Positions 1 to 7,031 of a stretch of DNA of 12,085 nt are shown piece after piece; the stretch's first letter is position 1; each line of letters opens with the position of its first letter. The notes below the pieces were generated by a model. The model was not told the DNA's origin. It worked only from the letters and a program-made list of their open reading frames with translations, and did not search any database. The translations under genes were made by a program, and so were the position numbers. The stretch comes from a virus. Lineage: Duplodnaviria; Heunggongvirae; Uroviricota; Caudoviricetes. The stretch lies in the IMG/VR virus record IMGVR_UViG_2713896780_000027; one strand, written 5' to 3'.

Positions 1-294
1 GCGTATGGTCAACCTGACAACCCGGTGTCCTCAACGGGGAAGGAATAACCCCTCCATACTTACCGCCGCGCCATTTCGCGGATTGCCACAACCGGAAGCG
101 CACGGTCGACGAAAATTTAACGACAGGCTATCTATGAACCAGCTACCTCGCCGTGCGCTTTCGCGTTATGGTCTGACTTTTCAGAGAAATATCCTTTCAG
201 TAAACTGTCAGTGCCGGATGTTCACCCGTGTCCGGCGCACGCACTCCACTTCACCCGTGGAGAACTCCTTAATTACCAACCCTCAGGAGGGTGA

Positions 295-528
295 ATGTTA
301 AAATCAACTCTTATTGCTAAATGCCTTTATCAAAATCGCATGGTAAGCAGCATTTCAATAGGCGAGTCTGCAGTTAAAAGTATTTTCGAAGAGTACTTTC
401 CCGGGCATGATTTTAATAAATGGAATACCAAATTACCGCCAGCAGTTTCAACGCGTATTCTGAAAGCAACCGAAAGAGCAAGTACAATTCGCGTTAACTA
501 TTTCATTAAAGATTTGTGGGATCTTTGA
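295..528 (+). CDS. hypothetical small protein (77 aa), low-GC accessory gene
   Basis: ATG at 295 with AGGAGG about 6 nt upstream (287-292). AT-rich coding sequence contrasts with the GC-rich leader at 1-294. Its 3' end overlaps the convergent 135-aa gene by about 23 bp. No family recognised. Confidence 0.4.
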   Translation: MLKSTLIAKCLYQNRMVSSISIGESAVKSIFEEYFPGHDFNKWNTKLPPAVSTRILKATERASTIRVNYFIKDLWDL

Positions 529-913
529 TATCCACAGAGCCTAAAGTATGTGCATATGGATGTGCTATTATGCGCCCTCGCAGATTTGCATCATTTTCTA
601 AATTCACTGAACGAAACAGGGCATCAACAAGGCTCTGTACAATGCAAAGGCAATCGAAGACTGTCGCCGTTTCTGTTTTGATTGATGAAAGAACATGGCC
701 ATTCACGCAAACAGAAATTACCCGTTTATTAACATCGCTTTCCTGCTTTTGATTATCAGAACCATATAGCCCAGAAAAAGCATTGCGCACATTACGAACC
801 ATATTATCGATGGTTTCTTTTTCTGCGGTACTAAGGTCAAGAGTAGCCAGTTGTGAACGAACTATATTCGATGCCATTTCCTGTAATGGCGTTGGTAAAT
901 CTTTAAATTCCAT
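506..913 (-). CDS. hypothetical protein (135 aa), last gene of the leftward early operon
   Basis: ATG at 913 (minus) preceded by GAGG. Co-oriented with the upstream 72-aa and 118-aa genes, separated from the former by only 22 bp. Low GC. No family recognised. Confidence 0.5.
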   Translation of the reverse strand: MEFKDLPTPLQEMASNIVRSQLATLDLSTAEKETIDNMVRNVRNAFSGLYGSDNQKQESDVNKRVISVCVNGHVLSSIKTETATVFDCLCIVQSLVDALFRSVNLENDANLRGRIIAHPYAHTLGSVDIKDPTNL

Positions 914-935
914 TATTAGCCTCGTTGGTTAGCTA

Positions 936-1154
936 TTAACGTGGGTATGTAATCATTCTGGCAATGCTTAATGCCGCTGCTTTTTCCAGATTGGTGATAT
1001 CCTGCTCCAGAGCGGACAGATTTTCAGCCTGCTTAGCCCTGGCTTCATTGGCCCATTTCAGGTCCTGCACCGCCTTAATTTTCTGGTGCATCCACTCATA
1101 AAGTTCATCATCGGTATAGTCTGGCGCGATGATGACGGGGTCTCGTTTCTGCAT
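936..1154 (-). CDS. hypothetical small protein (72 aa)
   Basis: ATG at 1154 (minus) with a strong AAGGAG Shine-Dalgarno 5 nt upstream. Predicted acidic/helical product. Sits in the leftward operon downstream of the repressor gene. Confidence 0.55.
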   Translation of the reverse strand: MQKRDPVIIAPDYTDDELYEWMHQKIKAVQDLKWANEARAKQAENLSALEQDITNLEKAAALSIARMITYPR

Positions 1155-1226
1155 GTCGGCTCCTTGTGGTTAGCGTTGCCTGCTTTTTAACCACGTCAGG
1201 CGAGGTGGTATCCTCTGAGGGGTCTG

Positions 1227-1583
1227 TTACTCGAGAGGAAATTGGTTATGAATACAATCAAGTTTTCTTGCCCAGAATGTGGTGGCTAAGTCTTTGACAC
1301 ATCCTTTAAGCCGCAGGGCTCTGACAGTTTCGCGGGAGCCATCTGCAAAAATTGTGGTCACCTTGTAACTGAAGATGAGTCCTCGCAGTTCGATGACGAA
1401 ATCGTTGACAATATCTTCGGTGCACTCACCAGAGACTTTCTGAAGTAAAGGCGCATACCGCTTAGTTACCGCTCTGATAACTCTTACCTGTCCGGCAATG
1501 GCGCTGATATCAATATAAAGCGCCATCGCTGTTTCTTTGCTGATCCCTGGACGCCTTCCATTCTGATGTTTGACTTCGCCCAC
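1227..1583 (-). CDS. hypothetical protein (118 aa)
   Basis: GTG start at 1583 (minus) preceded by AGAGGA with 7-nt spacing. An internal ATG (Met20) is an alternative start. First ORF downstream of the dicA-like gene on the same strand. Confidence 0.45.
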   Translation of the reverse strand: MGEVKHQNGRRPGISKETAMALYIDISAIAGQVRVIRAVTKRYAPLLQKVSGECTEDIVNDFVIELRGLIFSYKVTTIFADGSRETVRALRLKGCVKDLATTFWARKLDCIHNQFPLE

Positions 1584-1790
1584 TGAGAAATCCTCTGCTT
1601 CCCCTTAACGCCGGGTAGCGGAACTGTTTGCTGAGAACACCGTGCGGTGTCTTGATGAGTAGAATTTAGAATAGCCTAAGAGTTATGGTTAAGCTTTTTG
1701 TGTAGAAAAACCTAAGCTTCTTGATGTAAAAAACACAAGTATTTGAAAGTTTGTGCTTTTTATTACAGAGAGTTGCGAAAAAAAGGGGGG

Positions 1791-2198
1791 TTATTTATTT
1801 GCGCTTCTTTTGCGAGCTTTGAGTAGTTCTTCAAAAAGTTTGTTGAAATTCTCAACTCGAGCACGCATCTCTGACAACAGAGCCTTTTGCTCTGACTCAG
1901 GCAGTGCGTCGAACAGTTGAAGCAACTCTTTTTGATCTTCTGTCAGATTGACTGGCTGATTATCTGGGATCGGTTCGCCTGGTTGCTTATCTTCATCTCC
2001 AAAAAGAAGCCAAGTCGGCGAGCACTGAAGCGCCTGGCTCAGTGCGAATAATCTCTTCCCCGCTGGCTGTGTTTCATCTCTTTCCCATTGAGAAATTGTT
2101 ACGTGAGCCACTTTGACCAGCTTACCTAATGCGGCCTGAGACAGTTTTAATTTTTTTCGCCTGTATAAGAGGCGAGCACCGAAGGTTTCGTTTTTCAT
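1791..2198 (-). CDS. dicA: DicA-like CI-type prophage repressor (HTH XRE family), 135 aa
   Basis: Translation carries an N-terminal HTH (LSQAALGKLVKVAHVTISQWER) and the motifs LFALSQALQCSPTWLLFGDEDKQP and NFNKLFEELLKARKR. These match my recollection of E. coli Qin DicA closely, and the length is the same. It is divergent from a Cro-like gene. Confidence 0.75.
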   Translation of the reverse strand: MKNETFGARLLYRRKKLKLSQAALGKLVKVAHVTISQWERDETQPAGKRLFALSQALQCSPTWLLFGDEDKQPGEPIPDNQPVNLTEDQKELLQLFDALPESEQKALLSEMRARVENFNKLFEELLKARKRSANK

Positions 2199-2274
2199 AT
2201 TAGGTAATTCTAATTTTTCTTGACTTAGGTTTCTCTACGATCTAGTTTCCTTAGGAAAATCTAAGGGGTTCGAT
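2199..2274. promoter_or_regulatory. divergent repressor/cro intergenic control region with operator-like inverted repeats
   Basis: 76-bp gap between divergent dicA-like and dicC-like starts. Contains -35-like TTGACT (2220-2225), the inverted repeat CCTTAG-N6-CTAAGG (about 2249-2266) and a further CTTAGG at 2223-2228. Confidence 0.5.
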
Positions 2275-2502
2275 ATGTTGAAAATTGATGCTATAGCGTT
2301 TTTTGGCAGCAAAACAAAGCTTGCCAATGTCGCAGGAGTTAGGCTGGCAAGCGTTGCTGCATGGGGGGAACTGGTTCCTGAAGGTCGCGCGATGCGCCTG
2401 CAAGAGGCATCCGGCGGGGAACTTCAGTACGACCCCAAAGTTTATGACGAATATCGTAAGGCAAAGCGGGCGGGGCGGTTGAACAATGAAAATCACCACT
2501 GA
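2275..2502 (+). CDS. dicC: Cro-like regulator of the DicC/YdaS family, 75 aa
   Basis: ATG at 2275 with AAGGGG upstream. Divergent from the dicA-like gene. Product resembles DicC/YdaS-type Cro proteins (FFGSKTKLANVAGV...GRAMRLQEASGGELQYDP). Confidence 0.6.
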   Translation: MLKIDAIAFFGSKTKLANVAGVRLASVAAWGELVPEGRAMRLQEASGGELQYDPKVYDEYRKAKRAGRLNNENHH

Positions 2503-3037
2503 ACAGGTTTGTGAGGCTCTGGATACCTGGGTATGCCGACCAGGAATGACACAGGAGCAGGCGACGATATTAATCACGGAAGCATTCTGGGCTCTGAAAG
2601 AACGCCCGAACATCGATGTTCAACGCGTCACGTTTAATGATGGCGAGGTTGATCAACGGGCGCTGGGCGTTAACCGGGTGAAGATATTCGAACGCTGGAA
2701 AGCTATCGACACCAGAGATAAGCGTGACAAATTCACGGCGCTGATTCCGGCAATTATGGAGGCTATCCGGATCAGCGATTTCAGATTGTATTGTGAAATT
2801 ACTGACGGAAAAAGCATTACGTACATGATCGCCGGGTTAAACAAAGAATATGGCGATGTGGTGGAGTCCGGGCTGCTTTTTGCGGATCCAGTTGTTGTGG
2901 AACGTGAGACTGACGAGCTTATAGAAAAAGCTATTGCTTTCAAGCACGCGTATCGTCAGCAATACCAATATTACTTTGCAGATAAACAAATGTCTGCCAG
3001 GGGTTCGTATGAGTATCGATGCACTACGATGGGCTAA
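2486..3037 (+). CDS. YdaT-like protein (CII-like regulator/toxin-domain family), 183 aa
   Basis: ATG at 2486 overlaps the end of the cro-like gene by 17 bp. Position and N-terminal sequence are consistent with the YdaT proteins that follow YdaS/Cro in Rac and CP-933P-type prophages. The C-terminal 29 bp overlap the O-like start. Confidence 0.55.
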   Translation: MKITTEQVCEALDTWVCRPGMTQEQATILITEAFWALKERPNIDVQRVTFNDGEVDQRALGVNRVKIFERWKAIDTRDKRDKFTALIPAIMEAIRISDFRLYCEITDGKSITYMIAGLNKEYGDVVESGLLFADPVVVERETDELIEKAIAFKHAYRQQYQYYFADKQMSARGSYEYRCTTMG

Positions 3038-4049
3038 AAAGGTGAAAACCGGCAGTTCATCCAGTAAGTCAGTATTGACCTGGCTTGCTGATATGTGCGG
3101 TGCCGATTTGTGTGCATACCCGTCTGTATCTGCACTGGCAGAAGTAACGGAACTGAACAAAAAGACTGTGCAGGACAGCTTACGACACCTGATGGAGATT
3201 GGGTTAATTGTTGATACCGGTGAGAGAAAAGGCAGAACAAAGCAAATTGTGGTGTACCGACTTATCGGTGTAGAAGAAAGTGTTGCCGAGCCTGAATACA
3301 CCCAAAAACGGGAGTCTTTAAAGGTGGGTAAAATTGGTGCTGTTAATAAAAACAGTACCGAAAATGGTTATGTTTCAGCACAAAACAGACCCAAAAACAG
3401 AACTCTTAGCTGCATGGAAAATAACCAAAGACACCCAAATTTTCCATCAAAGACACCCAAAAACGGATCACGGAACCCAAAGGAACCCAAAGATCTAAAC
3501 CCCACACATAACGCACGCGAGAGTGCTCCGACCAGTGAGCAGGAAGTTTTGTCGTTACAGGCAGCCCCCCCTGTATTCCTGTATGGCCTGAGCGAACCCA
3601 TCGGAAAATTCCCGATGAGCGATAGCTGGTATCCGTCACGGGATTTTCGACGACGGGCTGCGTTGTGGGGGATGGCTTTGCCGGAGACAGAATTTACACC
3701 TGCTGAACTTGCCGCCTTCCGGGACTACTGGGCAGCGGAGGGGAAAGTGTTTACGCAGATTCAGTGGGAGCAGAAATTCGCCCGTCACGTAAATCACGTC
3801 AGGGCGCAGGTTAAACCAGTCAGCAAAGGGGTAAACCATGCAGCAGCACCAGGTGGCACCGCATCACGGGCAGTTCAGGAAATTCGGGCAGCACGTGAGC
3901 AGTGGGAACGTGAAAACGGATTTATCAGCGACGGAAACGGCCTGGAAGCTGTGGGAACTCATGGGGGAGGTTTATTCGAACCGCTGGACCCAGAAGAACG
4001 GGGCCGCACCATCGAAGCTCTGGATTGCACAGATTGGCGCGATGACTGA
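3009..4049 (+). CDS. replication initiator, lambda O-like (N-terminal HTH, low-complexity linker, C-terminal DnaT-like domain)
   Basis: ATG at 3009 (MSIDALRWAKK...) with AGGGG upstream; the longer ORF from 2934 was rejected. N-terminal winged-helix region, P/K/N-rich linker encoded by the iteron repeats, and a DnaT-like C-terminal region (FTPAELAAFRDYWAAEG...). The last 212 bp overlap the P-like gene out of frame. Confidence 0.65.
   Translation: MSIDALRWAKKVKTGSSSSKSVLTWLADMCGADLCAYPSVSALAEVTELNKKTVQDSLRHLMEIGLIVDTGERKGRTKQIVVYRLIGVEESVAEPEYTQKRESLKVGKIGAVNKNSTENGYVSAQNRPKNRTLSCMENNQRHPNFPSKTPKNGSRNPKEPKDLNPTHNARESAPTSEQEVLSLQAAPPVFLYGLSEPIGKFPMSDSWYPSRDFRRRAALWGMALPETEFTPAELAAFRDYWAAEGKVFTQIQWEQKFARHVNHVRAQVKPVSKGVNHAAAPGGTASRAVQEIRAAREQWERENGFISDGNGLEAVGTHGGGLFEPLDPEERGRTIEALDCTDWRDD
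3386..3495. repeat. iteron-like direct repeats (candidate phage origin) inside the O-like gene
   Basis: At least five copies of an (A/G)ACCCAAA core within about 110 bp (AGACCCAAAAACAG, AGACACCCAAATTTT, AGACACCCAAAAACGG, GGAACCCAAAGG, GAACCCAAAGATC). They lie in the linker-coding part of the initiator gene, as in the lambda ori. Confidence 0.5.
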
Positions 4050-4503
4050 GCAGCAAATCCGGCAGGTCTGCCGCCAGTGCATGGACCGCTGCCGGGCGGG
4101 TGAAACATGGCCTCCGGACCTGGCTGAGTTTGTGGCACTGATTTCGAAAAGCGGAGCCAATCCATTCGGTCTGACGGTGGATGCTGTGATGGAGGAGTAC
4201 CGCCGCTGGCGCAATGAGTCCTGGCGATACGACGGAAGTGATAAGTACCCGTGGTCTCAGCCTGTGCTGTATCACATTTGCCTCGAGATGCGTTCAAAGG
4301 GGATTGAGCGCCAGATGACCGAAGGGGAATTAAAACGGCTTGCAGAACGGCAACTGACGAAATGGGCAAAGCATGTTAGTAACGGCCTGAGCGTTCCGCC
4401 AGTCCGGCGACAACTGGCGGCCCCCAAACGCCCGTCGGGGCCAACGCCAATTGAGTTGCTGAAACAGGAATATGAACGCCGGAAAGCGGCTGGTTTTGTT
4501 TGA
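3838..4503 (+). CDS. replication protein P-like helicase loader (lambda P family)
   Basis: C-terminal half resembles lambda P as I recall it (YPWSQPVLYHICLEMR... against YPWKSNAHYWLVTNLY...). ATG at 3838 has AAAGGGG 6 nt upstream. Alternative starts are GTG 3910, ATG 3961 and ATG 4042. Confidence 0.65.
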   Translation: MQQHQVAPHHGQFRKFGQHVSSGNVKTDLSATETAWKLWELMGEVYSNRWTQKNGAAPSKLWIAQIGAMTEQQIRQVCRQCMDRCRAGETWPPDLAEFVALISKSGANPFGLTVDAVMEEYRRWRNESWRYDGSDKYPWSQPVLYHICLEMRSKGIERQMTEGELKRLAERQLTKWAKHVSNGLSVPPVRRQLAAPKRPSGPTPIELLKQEYERRKAAGFV

Positions 4504-4536
4504 GTTGAGAAGTGATTTTTTACCGGGAGGAAATTT

Positions 4537-5271
4537 ATGGAGACTGTTTTTGACGCACTGAAAGCGATGGGAAAAGCCACGTCGGTAGAGCTGGCTGCGC
4601 GACTTGATATCAGTCGTGAAGAAGTACTGAACGAGCTGTGGGAACTGAAAAAGGCTGGCTTCGTTGATAAAAGCGTATACACCTGGCGTGTGGCTGATAA
4701 CAACGTTCAGCAGGAACAGCCAGCGCCAGAAGAAACCACCACGGCAACAGAAGCGAAAATCTCAGAGTGCGATTTAACCGCGACGATTGAACAACGCGGA
4801 CCACAAACGGCGGATGAACTGGCTACGCTGTTCGGTACAACATCCCGCAAAGTTGCTTCAACGCTGGCAATGGCAATCAGCAAAGGTCGTCTGATTCGCG
4901 TAAACCAGAACGGTAAAATTCGTTACTGCATACCAGGTGATAATTTACCAGCAGAGCCGAAAGTTGAATCGGTAGCGGAAACCGATGGTAAAGCCTTTCC
5001 TCAGCCAGCCGGTGTTGCGTTACCGGTACAGAAAGATGCAACACAGGAAGATATTAAAACAGAAACTGTGGCGGACATTGTGCAGTCGCTGCCATCGTTT
5101 ACTGCAACGCGAGAAGATGATTTGATTTTGCCATCGCTGCATATGGCAAATCGCGAACTGCGTAGGGCGAAGAATCATGTCCAGAAGTGGGAGCGAGTCT
5201 GCGCCGCGCTGCGGGAGCTGAACAAGCACCGGGATATGGTTGCCGGGATTTGTCGGAAGTCCGGGCAATGA
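4537..5271 (+). CDS. conserved prophage protein, DUF1627-like, 244 aa
   Basis: ATG at 4537 with a strong GGGAGG Shine-Dalgarno. N-terminal winged-helix-like segment followed by an acidic/Thr-rich linker. Sits immediately after O/P, as in many lambdoid prophages. Family assignment is from memory only. Confidence 0.5.
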
Positions 5272-5432
5272 GCGGATGGTGCAGGCCTGAAATCATGATA
5301 CTAACAATGAAGGTAAAATGCATCGGCAGTCTGATTGGTCGTAGTGAGGCGGCGGTCAGGATGAAAGCCCAGGTTAAGGGAATAAGCCTGATTCTGCGGG
5401 GTGATTTTCACCAGTCAACAAAATATCCGTAG
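5268..5432 (+). CDS. hypothetical small protein (54 aa)
   Basis: ATG at 5268 overlaps the DUF1627 stop (ATGA coupling). The longer ORF from 5187 lacks a ribosome-binding site and overlaps the upstream gene. No homology recognised. Confidence 0.3.
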
Positions 5433-5712
5433 CGCGATAACGGTCAAAAATTATGGCGCTGACACTTTTGTGCCACTGGAGATGACTGTACCTAAGTTCA
5501 GGGGAGAAGAACACGTCCGGTGGGATGGTCGGGCCAGATTTAAAGGGCAGGTCATGGCTCCAGCCTGTACGCTGGCAATGGAGGCTGCCTGGCGGGAAAT
5601 TGATATGGGAACCACGCCACTCAGGGATTTACTGCCGGTCCAGAGAATAAATTCCTGTTACGGTTACACCACTGTGATCTTGCAAGTGCAGGAAAGTAGG
5701 TCTACACGGTAA
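5401..5712 (+). CDS. hypothetical ORF, possibly a gene remnant
   Basis: Open frame from GTG 5401; better-placed internal starts are ATG 5482 and ATG 5554 (AAAGGG upstream). No recognisable domain. May be a decayed gene at the moron boundary. Confidence 0.2.
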   Translation: MIFTSQQNIRSAITVKNYGADTFVPLEMTVPKFRGEEHVRWDGRARFKGQVMAPACTLAMEAAWREIDMGTTPLRDLLPVQRINSCYGYTTVILQVQESRSTR

Positions 5713-5937
5713 CGCGAGTGCGTGTAACTTTGATGTCATTCCCGTAGAAACACCGGACAAATTTTCGCTGACAGGTCATGCAGAAGGTATAAATCTGCAG
5801 ATTATGGACAATTACGGATATCCGGCAAGAGCCGGAAAAAGCATGCCGCCTCTAATTCTCAGTGGAAGATGGACTTGATTATACTCATTGCATTGTCAGA
5901 AATAGTTATCCATTAAAGGCTGGCTATTCCAAACAGG

Positions 5938-5965
5938 ATGTTGATTACAAAAATGTAATCAACAT
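5938..5965. promoter_or_regulatory. perfect 12-bp inverted repeat with 4-bp spacer upstream of the moron gene
   Basis: ATGTTGATTACA-AAAA-TGTAATCAACAT, perfect dyad symmetry. Lies in an AT-rich region about 25 bp upstream of a TATAAT hexamer (5992-5997) and about 165 bp upstream of the 6130 start codon. Confidence 0.4.
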
Positions 5966-6129
5966 GTAAGGTTTATACTCTTCAATATGCGTATAATTTT
6001 CCTTATTTTGTTGACTTTAAATAACAAGCTATGCACGAGGTAAAGTCGGATAAGTTTATCTGGATGTAATATATATTATTTGTAGTGTTTATAACTTTAT
6101 TTCATGATAACCAATAAAAGGAGTTTTTT

Positions 6130-6888
6130 ATGAGGAACATAATGGCAGGTTTTTTAATATTCCTGTCTTCTGCTGCTTATGCTGATATCAATCTGTATGG
6201 TCCTGGTGGCCCGCATACAGCCTTGCTTGATGCAGCCAAACTTTATGCCGAAAAAACAGGTATTATAGTGAACGTTCATTACGGCCCACAGAACAAATGG
6301 AATGAAGATGCCAAAAAAAATGCAGATATCTTGTTTGGCGCATCAGAACAATCTGCTCTGGCTATCATTCGGGACCATAAAGACAGCTTCAGTGAAAAAG
6401 ATATTCAGCCTCTTTATCTGCGAAAAAGTATTTTACTGGTAAAGAAAGGTAATCCTAAAAATATCCGGAGTATTGACGACCTGACCAGACCTGGGATTGG
6501 CGTAATTGTTAATGATGGTGGTGGTACCAGTAATACATCAGGCACTGGCGTCTGGGAAGATATTGCCGGACGTAAAGGGAATATAGAAACTGTCGCCGCA
6601 ATCCGAAAAAATATTATTTTATATGCGCCCAATAGCGGAACTGCACGTAAGGCTCTTGAGAATCAGCCTGGAGCAGATGTCTGGATAACCTGGGCTGACT
6701 GGGCAGCCAGTAATCCAGAAATTGGTGATGTCGTGGAAATAGCGCCAGACTACGTGATATGGCGTGATATGAACATTACAGTACGTCAGGATGCAAATGA
6801 TGAAACCCGTCGATTTGCAGAATGGCTACAAACCGATGAAGCGGCGCCTGCATTCAAAAAATATGGCTGGACCAGGAAAGGCACTTGA
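6130..6888 (+). CDS. secreted periplasmic solute-binding protein, ModA/AcfC-like (type II PBP fold), 252 aa
   Basis: GGAG 6 nt upstream of ATG 6130. Sec-type signal peptide (MRNIMAGFLIFLSSAAYA, AXA cleavage motif). Mature sequence resembles molybdate/sulfate-binding proteins and the AcfC family, including the C-terminal AFKKYGW motif. GC is well below the flanking phage genes. Confidence 0.65.
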   Translation: MRNIMAGFLIFLSSAAYADINLYGPGGPHTALLDAAKLYAEKTGIIVNVHYGPQNKWNEDAKKNADILFGASEQSALAIIRDHKDSFSEKDIQPLYLRKSILLVKKGNPKNIRSIDDLTRPGIGVIVNDGGGTSNTSGTGVWEDIAGRKGNIETVAAIRKNIILYAPNSGTARKALENQPGADVWITWADWAASNPEIGDVVEIAPDYVIWRDMNITVRQDANDETRRFAEWLQTDEAAPAFKKYGWTRKGT

Positions 6889-6894
6889 CATCCT

Positions 6895-6920
6895 CGTCCT
6901 TCAGGACGTGGATTCTTTTT
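6895..6920 (+). terminator. candidate intrinsic terminator after the solute-binding gene
   Basis: Stem CGTCC/GGACG with TTCA loop, 7 nt after the stop, followed by a T-rich tract (TTCTTTTT). Confidence 0.4.
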
Positions 6921-7007
6921 CCGGATGCCGCGCCAGCGGCATGTAGGGGCAGCTCACAAAACGGAAAAAATTGTACGCTAAGCCTCGCCAGGTGAACTGA
7001 ATTCATT

Positions 7008-7031
7008 CCGATATGGGAATTCCCATATCGG
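7008..7031. other. perfect 24-nt palindrome CCGATATGGGAATTCCCATATCGG
   Basis: Exact dyad symmetry centred on GAATTC. No flanking T-run on either strand, so not a typical terminator. Sits in GC-rich non-coding DNA with further hairpins (ATGCCGC-GCCA-GCGGCAT at 6925-6942; GAGGC-TATCT-GCCTC at about 7086-7100). Confidence 0.4.

Follow-up and report, generated by a model that had tools for sequence, protein, structure and literature searches.

The window, namely the whole stretch of 12,085 nt that was analysed, is identical over positions 1–7123 to a lambdoid prophage of E. coli O145:H28 RM9872, and this prophage region corresponds to the STEC island that is called OI-57 in O157:H7 EDL933. The gene of main concern here is paa (adfO, z2053), the product of which is named 'AcfC family adhesin Paa' in RefSeq and which is placed between replication genes on one side and a hok/sok locus (hok/nin region) on the other. 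The adfO gene of OI-57 has been described in a review, and mutants without adfO adhere less well (PMC8565820). The features in and around paa are as follows.

5437 to 5928, plus strand: what is left of a fimbrial subunit gene, adjoining the paa module on its left.
5938 to 5965, no strand assigned: perfect 12-4-12 palindrome with 100% complementary arms, found in the prophage lineage only.
5944 to 5959, plus strand: core box ATTACA-AAAA-TGTAAT, matching the HprR/CusR inverted repeat ('copper box').
5965 to 5973, plus strand: third half-site TGTAAGGTT, 5 bp past the box and overlapping the predicted -35 position.
5992 to 5997, plus strand: predicted -10 hexamer TATAAT, of the TAnnnT type found 48–49 bp from the box start.
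6118 to 6123, plus strand: ribosome-binding site AAGGAG, kept in plasmid copies.
6130 to 6888, plus strand: paa/adfO (z2053), AcfC family, 252 aa, matching SBP_bac_11 (Pfam PF13531, E = 5.5e-34).
6895 to 6918 (6895 to 6908 in the terminator scan), plus strand: terminator-like hairpin with a T-run, directly past paa.
6947 to 6983, plus strand: Tn3-family terminal inverted-repeat-like sequence GGGGCAGCTCACAAAACGGAAAAAATTGTACGCTAAG, at the right edge of the paa module.

The initial annotation had pointed to an exact 28-bp dyad about 25 bp upstream of TATAAT, in an AT-rich tract, and this description proved accurate in its essentials: the stretch reads ATGTTGATTACA-AAAA-TGTAATCAACAT, with arms that pair at every base, TATAAT follows 26 bp past the end of the palindrome, and GC is 0.30 across 5851–6150. 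Dinucleotide-preserving shuffles were used to see how often perfect inverted repeats with arms of at least 12 and a loop of at most 10 arise: of 300 shuffled windows 6 had one, and of 3000 shuffles restricted to the surrounding 301 bp of AT-rich DNA 1 did; the inner pattern ATTACANNNNTGTAAT has one copy in the window and was obtained in none of 200 window shuffles. It had also been proposed that other copies of the same moron be compared, and in five prophage copies that are at least 98% alike the palindrome is indeed identical, while the 37 nt round the palindrome are found at 99% identity or more in 576 complete E. coli records. On the basis of its rarity in shuffles and the conservation of its core, which is described below, we have rejected the view that the palindrome arose by chance.

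It was necessary to establish to which of the neighbouring genetic elements the palindrome belongs. RefSeq annotates a pseudogene, 'fimbrial protein', at 5437–5969, with a frameshift, an internal stop and a TAA at 5967–5969, and the last 32 nt of this pseudogene hold the palindrome. Identity to intact fimbrial genes, found in both chromosomal and plasmid operons, is 85–88% and ends at about 5923–5928, which is about 38 nt before the stop codon of those genes; homology to plasmid copies of paa (about 86%) runs from about 5926 to about 6948. Because the homology to intact fimbrial genes ends near 5928, the palindrome is not fimbrial sequence, and fimbrial coding sequence was rejected as its source despite the RefSeq pseudogene; judging from these homologies, the final 40 nt that RefSeq assigns to the pseudogene come from the paa module and are read through in frame. 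The junction between the fimbrial remnant and the paa module lies at about 5926–5930, 10–15 bp from the palindrome, and these breakpoints indicate that the moron is a mosaic in which the palindrome belongs to the paa module. At the other edge, window positions 6944–6992 match DNA annotated as a Tn3-family transposase, and GGGGCAGCTCACAAAACGGAAAAAATTGTACGCTAAG, which begins exactly at the end of the homology to plasmid paa copies, resembles the 38-bp terminal inverted repeat of Tn21-type elements. In the plasmids L004 and L092, a remnant of a Tn3-family transposase flanks the other side of paa. The paa module has probably been moved by Tn3-type elements, and no regulator gene or copper gene travelling with paa was common to the contexts examined.

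As in other phage morons, the paa unit has a predicted promoter and a terminator-like hairpin and sits between conserved phage genes, and the GC of the paa region is 0.30–0.42 versus about 0.50 in the flanks. Unlike a usual moron, it is a mosaic composed of a fimbrial remnant, the paa module and a Tn3-type inverted repeat, and the unit of promoter plus gene occurs also on plasmids and chromosomes.

Several other features were noticed in the right half of the window. Just inside the Tn3-like inverted repeat, positions 7008–7031 form a perfect 24-bp palindrome with no loop (CCGATATGGGAA followed directly by TTCCCATATCGG), possibly a res-type or operator-type site. The run of 72 N at 7124–7195 stands for 278 nt of the RM9872 sequence and hides all of the hokD (ckf, z2054) coding sequence together with a part of the sok antitoxin RNA, the latter being recognized as Rfam RF01794 with 103.9 bits in L001. 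About 60 nt past the Q antiterminator gene there is a perfect 12-6-12 G+C-rich hairpin at 10169–10198 (AAACAAAACCCG-CCCACA-CGGGTTTTGTTT), which looks like an intrinsic terminator and is possibly a Q-controlled late terminator. An ORF for an IS110-family transposase of 398 aa is found downstream of the Q gene at 10658–11854 on the minus strand; its counterpart in RM9872 is ISEc20 according to RefSeq and lies between tRNA genes (Ile, Arg) and the terminase gene.

The prophage copies of the paa promoter are too alike to be informative on constraint, and diverged paa promoters were gathered from plasmids, species-representative genomes and metagenomes. Twelve distinct variants with the motif (prophage, several plasmids, metagenomes and Providencia) constituted the set for footprinting, in which conservation was measured as the majority fraction per alignment column, with the following values.

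Half-sites ATTACA and TGTAAT: 0.99.
Spacer of 4 bp: 0.96.
Downstream TGTAAGGTT: 0.91.
The 5 bp separating the box from TGTAAGGTT: 0.65.
Left outer arm: 0.57.

The half-sites are unchanged in 11 of the 12 variants, and a -10-like hexamer (TATAAT, TATACT or TACACT) is present 48–49 bp from the box start in all of them. The most distant members are a paa homologue of Providencia alcalifaciens with 67% amino-acid identity, next to an integrase gene, and a homologue with 69% on the metagenome contig L112, next to a queF-like gene; both carry the motif, and the remaining upstream DNA of both is unalignable. Perfect arms of 12 are restricted to the prophage lineage; two relatives have arms of 10 and 9, eight further variants arms of 6, and Providencia arms of 5. 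Since the outer 6 bp of each arm differ in the diverged copies, the earlier view that the 28-bp dyad as a whole is the functional unit could not be maintained; these outer positions are probably dispensable for recognition and, as the comparison of lineages has it, are a lineage-specific extension adjoining the recombination junction. The proposal of a site for a dimeric regulator fared better, and the element keeps a fixed distance to a conserved -10 hexamer, with the modification that the unit would be the inner 16 bp together with a third half-site.

Two of the paa promoters have AACA and AAAC as spacer with untouched half-sites. Because changes in the spacer are tolerated and the half-sites are kept, recognition by a protein is favoured over an A-tract or UP element; this last candidate was rejected on the ground that the spacer tolerates change while the C and G positions of the half-sites do not. 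As a whole, the conservation pattern points to a sequence-specific protein as the partner of the core.

The outer arms deserve a separate explanation. The left one sits between the junction and the box, and the right one extends over the variable 5 bp past the box and takes in the T of the third half-site. Two related lineages have arm extensions of 4 bp and 3 bp. Given the core, the chance of a perfect 6-bp extension is about 1/4096 per lineage, and a templated origin is plausible for this reason, for example through 'quasi-palindrome correction' at the junction. A more radical form of this idea is that the entire 28-bp dyad is a by-product of the recombination junction with no regulatory role; it might, for example, be a quasi-palindrome that template switching made perfect, or else a recombinase site or the end of a mobile unit. 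Three points are in line with such an origin: the left arm is close to the breakpoint at which the fimbrial remnant gives way to the paa module, the outer arms are rare and lineage-specific, and in several independent contexts (next to a Tn3 transposase remnant, IS21 and others) no more than about 15 bp separate the start of the module from the box. However, it accounts for the outer 6 bp only: the core is kept where no junction is common (next to the integrase gene in Providencia and the queF-like gene in L112), stands at a fixed distance to the -10 hexamer and is dissimilar to the inverted repeats of the Tn3 family. We consider it very unlikely that the dyad is of this kind.

A palindrome of this length may also act as RNA or single-stranded DNA, and in this case the hairpin would terminate read-through transcripts that come from the phage early operon or the fimbrial remnant, or would affect their stability. 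The RNA folds into a 12-bp stem (-13.8 to -15.1 kcal/mol; z-score -3.4), and the site comes after the rightward early genes, which are on the same strand. The stem contains, however, G-C pairs at only 3 of 12 positions and is followed by no T-run, and the terminator scan did not report it. In the diverged copies a stem of 6 bp is left, in which the sequence of the half-sites is kept with no compensatory changes, and this is the opposite of what a constraint on structure alone would produce. An intrinsic terminator was rejected, because the stem is AT-rich instead of G+C-rich, lacks a T-run and is unconserved past 6 bp, and the hairpin explanation in general appears to us extremely unlikely.

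The AT-richness of the tract, which the initial annotation had connected with H-NS, allows one more explanation, according to which the tract serves mainly for H-NS silencing, the dyad has no specific partner, and expression is governed by H-NS and its antagonists. The low GC over 5851–6150 and the horizontally acquired nature of the DNA speak for this explanation, but it leaves unexplained why C and G positions of the half-sites are base-perfect amid varying AT-rich sequence. Silencing by H-NS and its relief by an activator can coexist, and so H-NS is compatible with the recognition of the box by a specific activator; as the sole explanation, it is highly unlikely.

The association of the box with paa has also been examined on a wider scale. 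Upstream of paa homologues of E. albertii, Citrobacter, Edwardsiella, Aeromonas, Vibrio and others, no box above background was found, and the link between box and gene is therefore lineage-specific. A scan of 2.9 million viral contigs with the composite motif gave 48 matches, of which 44 are paa prophages; in the remaining four (L194, L204, L203 and L221) no paa was seen, and these look like chance occurrences in unrelated AT-rich DNA. In one viral contig (L209, IMGVR_UViG_2698536348_000010), the end of an insertion sequence (TGAACCGCCCCGGGTTTCCTGGAGAG...) splits the paa promoter at 7556–7708, with the box and the third half-site on one side and TATAAT on the other, and this is a natural uncoupling of the two parts.

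The 6-4-6 layout of the core is reminiscent of the 'copper box' of CusR. The sequence at 5944–5959, ATTACAAAAATGTAAT, fits the inverted repeat AT(T/G)ACA-N4-TGT(A/C)AT, and a comparison with known regulator sites, which had been recommended with the first description of the dyad, led to the box of HprR (YedW) and CusR, so that the candidate regulators can be named as the CusR/HprR group of the OmpR family. The HprR/CusR box in the hiuH–hprR intergenic region of K-12, which separates hiuH-msrPQ from hprRS, is CATTACAAAATTGTAATG (PMC9302797; bioRxiv 2021.09.09.459708), and we have confirmed it in the K-12 sequence NC_000913.3. It differs from the window sequence, GATTACAAAAATGTAATC, in one spacer base only: the two share the half-sites ATTACA and TGTAAT, a 4-bp spacer and three of its four bases. 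The likeness extends beyond the box, because the hiuH promoter has the identical third half-site TGTAAGGTT 5 bp downstream. In K-12, ATTACAAAATTGTAAT-GCTGC-TGTAAGGTT (spelled out, ATTACA AAAT TGTAAT GCTGC and then TGTAAGGTT) is followed by the hexamer TATCCT at +49 (NC_000913.3), and in the window, ATTACAAAAATGTAAT-CAACA-TGTAAGGTT is followed by TATAAT at +48, i.e., the box-to-hexamer distance is 48 bp at paa versus 49 bp at hiuH. There are also differences. The hiuH box lies between the divergent hprR and hiuH genes, beside the gene of its own regulator, whereas the paa box lies at the edge of a mobile module with no regulator gene nearby, and only in the prophage lineage do the flanks of the latter lengthen the dyad to 28 bp. 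EMSA and ChIP have demonstrated binding at hiuH, whereas binding at paa is a prediction.

The copper boxes of cusC, silC, silE and pcoE (CusR/SilR type) have the same 6-4-6 inverted repeat as paa. In cusC (taken from K-12) and silC and silE (taken from an E. coli plasmid), ATGACA-N4-TGTCAT is followed by N5, by TGTCA(C/T) and by a TAnnnT hexamer at +49; their half-sites differ from those of paa by one base each. The pcoA box, ATTACAcaatTGTAAT, has the half-sites ATTACA and TGTAAT as in paa. Nine promoters can be aligned with a single gap of 1 nt. The third half-site is a feature that we have derived here from the aligned promoters rather than from a published criterion, and the -10 elements and start sites are predictions in every promoter compared. 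The cusC, silC and silE genes encode metal efflux or metal-binding proteins, whereas paa has been described as an adhesin or colonisation factor.

An experimentally studied case of the same half-sites with the same spacing is known in Pseudomonas paraeruginosa. The palindrome ATTACATnnATGTAAT in the cusR–pcoA2 intergenic region is needed for the copper response and is bound by three related response regulators, CusR, CopR and CzcR, as evidenced by EMSA, reporter fusions and a 4-bp mutation (PMC11195947, 2024); the E. coli CusR box is given as AAAATGACAAnnTTGTCATTTT in the same paper. This case differs from paa in the genus, in the regulators and in the presence of cross-regulation, and it carries a warning that binding of one regulator may activate while that of another may block. 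As a separate observation on copper-resistance promoters, the upstream region of pcoA in the plasmid p027_SK3a (L174, 4535–4578) has two tandem boxes, ATGACATAAATGTAAT and ATTACACAATTGTAAT, 28 bp apart, and one of them is a hybrid of TGTCA-type and TGTAA-type half-sites.

We now turn to the anatomy of the putative promoter. If transcription of paa starts near 6004, as we infer from a distance of about 7 nt past TATAAT, the centre of the box would be at about -52.5 and that of the third half-site at about -36.5. No good -35 hexamer was found 16–18 bp 5' of TATAAT, and its lack fits an activator-dependent promoter. The predicted 5' leader of paa is about 126 nt, versus about 25 nt at hiuH, and this length counts against the proposed promoter. 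Within the leader region (6000–6125), the blocks TTTTGTTAACTTTAAATGAC and ATAAATTTATCTGG are common to plasmid and prophage copies, and a second -10-like element, TGTAATAT, is seen at 6065–6072; O121 and a poultry strain have TATAAT there. An additional promoter nearer to paa, or control through the leader, is possible.

The initial annotation had left it undecided whether the solute-binding gene is under host or phage control. Half-site matches elsewhere in the window do not exceed chance expectation, and by eye the cI–cro intergenic region (2199–2274) has no related repeat, with motifs of the TTAGG/CTAAG type there. Because the immunity region lacks similar half-sites, an operator of the prophage CI/Cro was rejected and control by a phage repressor is unlikely; a host regulator is the most likely one in view of the match to the CusR/HprR box. 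Fur was rejected as well, since paa is outside Fur regulation according to published qRT-PCR.

Another possibility to be weighed is that the core is the operator of some other dimeric regulator, of the host or of a mobile element, and that its likeness to the HprR/CusR box is coincidental or partial; the binding of HprR and CusR might then be too weak to have any effect in vivo. Compared with the hiuH box, the flanks and one base of the spacer are different. By eye, the core matches none of the consensus sites of FNR, CRP, TyrR, Fur, LexA, ArgR, IHF and EvgA, and neither these nor those of RstA, CpxR, ArcA, PmrA and GacA/UvrY fit it in orientation or spacing. The third half-site of 9 nt, the distance to the -10 hexamer and all 12 of the 12 half-site positions match hiuH, and no regulator gene accompanies paa across its contexts, all of which speak against another regulator. 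On the other side, HprR and CusR recognize the same sequence with differing affinities and appeared to be near single-target regulators in genomic SELEX (PMC8249747). With both sides considered, we judge it unlikely that the core belongs to another regulator.

We regard it as quite probable that paa has a copper-box promoter activated by phosphorylated HprR and/or CusR, or by PcoR or SilR where these are present. This reading is based on the identity to a validated box, the three-part geometry, the conservation in diverged paa promoters and the presence of the regulator in the hosts; from the same comparisons we infer the binding itself, the direction of activation, the start site and the dominant regulator. 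Concerning the hosts, 5413 of the 5426 complete E. coli genomes carry hprR along with its intergenic region, and E. coli hosts of paa can therefore be regarded as having the regulator. In the proposed mechanism, the inner 16 bp (ATTACA-AAAA-TGTAAT, 5944–5959) would be the upstream activator site of the paa promoter and would cooperate with the third half-site (5965–5973) and with TATAAT. Phosphorylated regulators of the OmpR family would bind there, namely HprR, which responds to HOCl and H2O2, and/or CusR, which responds to Cu and Ag, and the plasmid-borne paralogues PcoR or SilR could bind the box too in cells that have them. A further protomer on the third half-site, lying over the weak -35 position, would recruit RNA polymerase in the same manner as at hiuH, cusC, silC and silE, and paa/adfO would be induced in the gut by copper and oxidant stress. 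Expression of paa (adfO) is thus probably switched on by copper or by hypochlorite/peroxide stress.

Published data on the regulators and on paa expression can be compared with this proposal. The hiuH box mediates the copper response through CusSR and the HOCl response through HprSR (PMC9302797). According to a 2026 study, EDL933 has a functional hprR, the product of which binds the hiuH promoter, and EHEC adherence and colonisation are controlled by HprR (PMC13064566); the main text of this RNA-seq/ChIP-seq study, with its 41 peaks, makes no mention of paa, adfO or z2053. Transcript levels have been reported for EDL933 in rumen and rectum contents: in rumen content the log2 fold changes are +3.5 for cusC, +4.0 for cusF and +2.4 for Z2053 (paa), and in rectum content Z2053 reaches +3.2 log2, with oxidative-stress genes being high there. 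The joint rise of the three genes in rumen content is circumstantial, having many possible causes. In the literature searched we found no report linking paa/adfO to CusR, HprR or copper, no description of paa/adfO regulation and no occurrence of the exact 16-mer core.

The site type itself is well known; the novelty is that an accessory member of its regulon is predicted on a mobile, virulence-associated module. The paa/adfO gene marks the OI-57 island and serves in the risk typing of STEC. As a working hypothesis, copper, silver, HOCl and H2O2 would turn on an acquired colonisation factor via two-component systems of the core genome, and this would fit the recently reported role of HprR in EHEC adherence and colonisation (PMC13064566) and would be relevant to livestock feed with copper supplement. 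The module of promoter plus gene appears to keep its wiring to host regulators across plasmids, prophage and chromosomes. A bolder idea, to which we give rather low credence, is that Paa/AdfO may not be primarily an adhesin and may be instead a periplasmic part of the envelope-stress response to copper and reactive chlorine; its proposed company would be CusF, SilE, PcoE, HiuH and MsrP, which sit behind the same type of box. Should these views be true, paa would carry its own CusR/HprR-dependent promoter as a plug-in module among plasmids, prophages, chromosomes and genera, copper feed supplements or neutrophil oxidants would directly induce a 'virulence marker' of STEC and ETEC, and paa would account for part of the adherence defect seen in EHEC hprR mutants.
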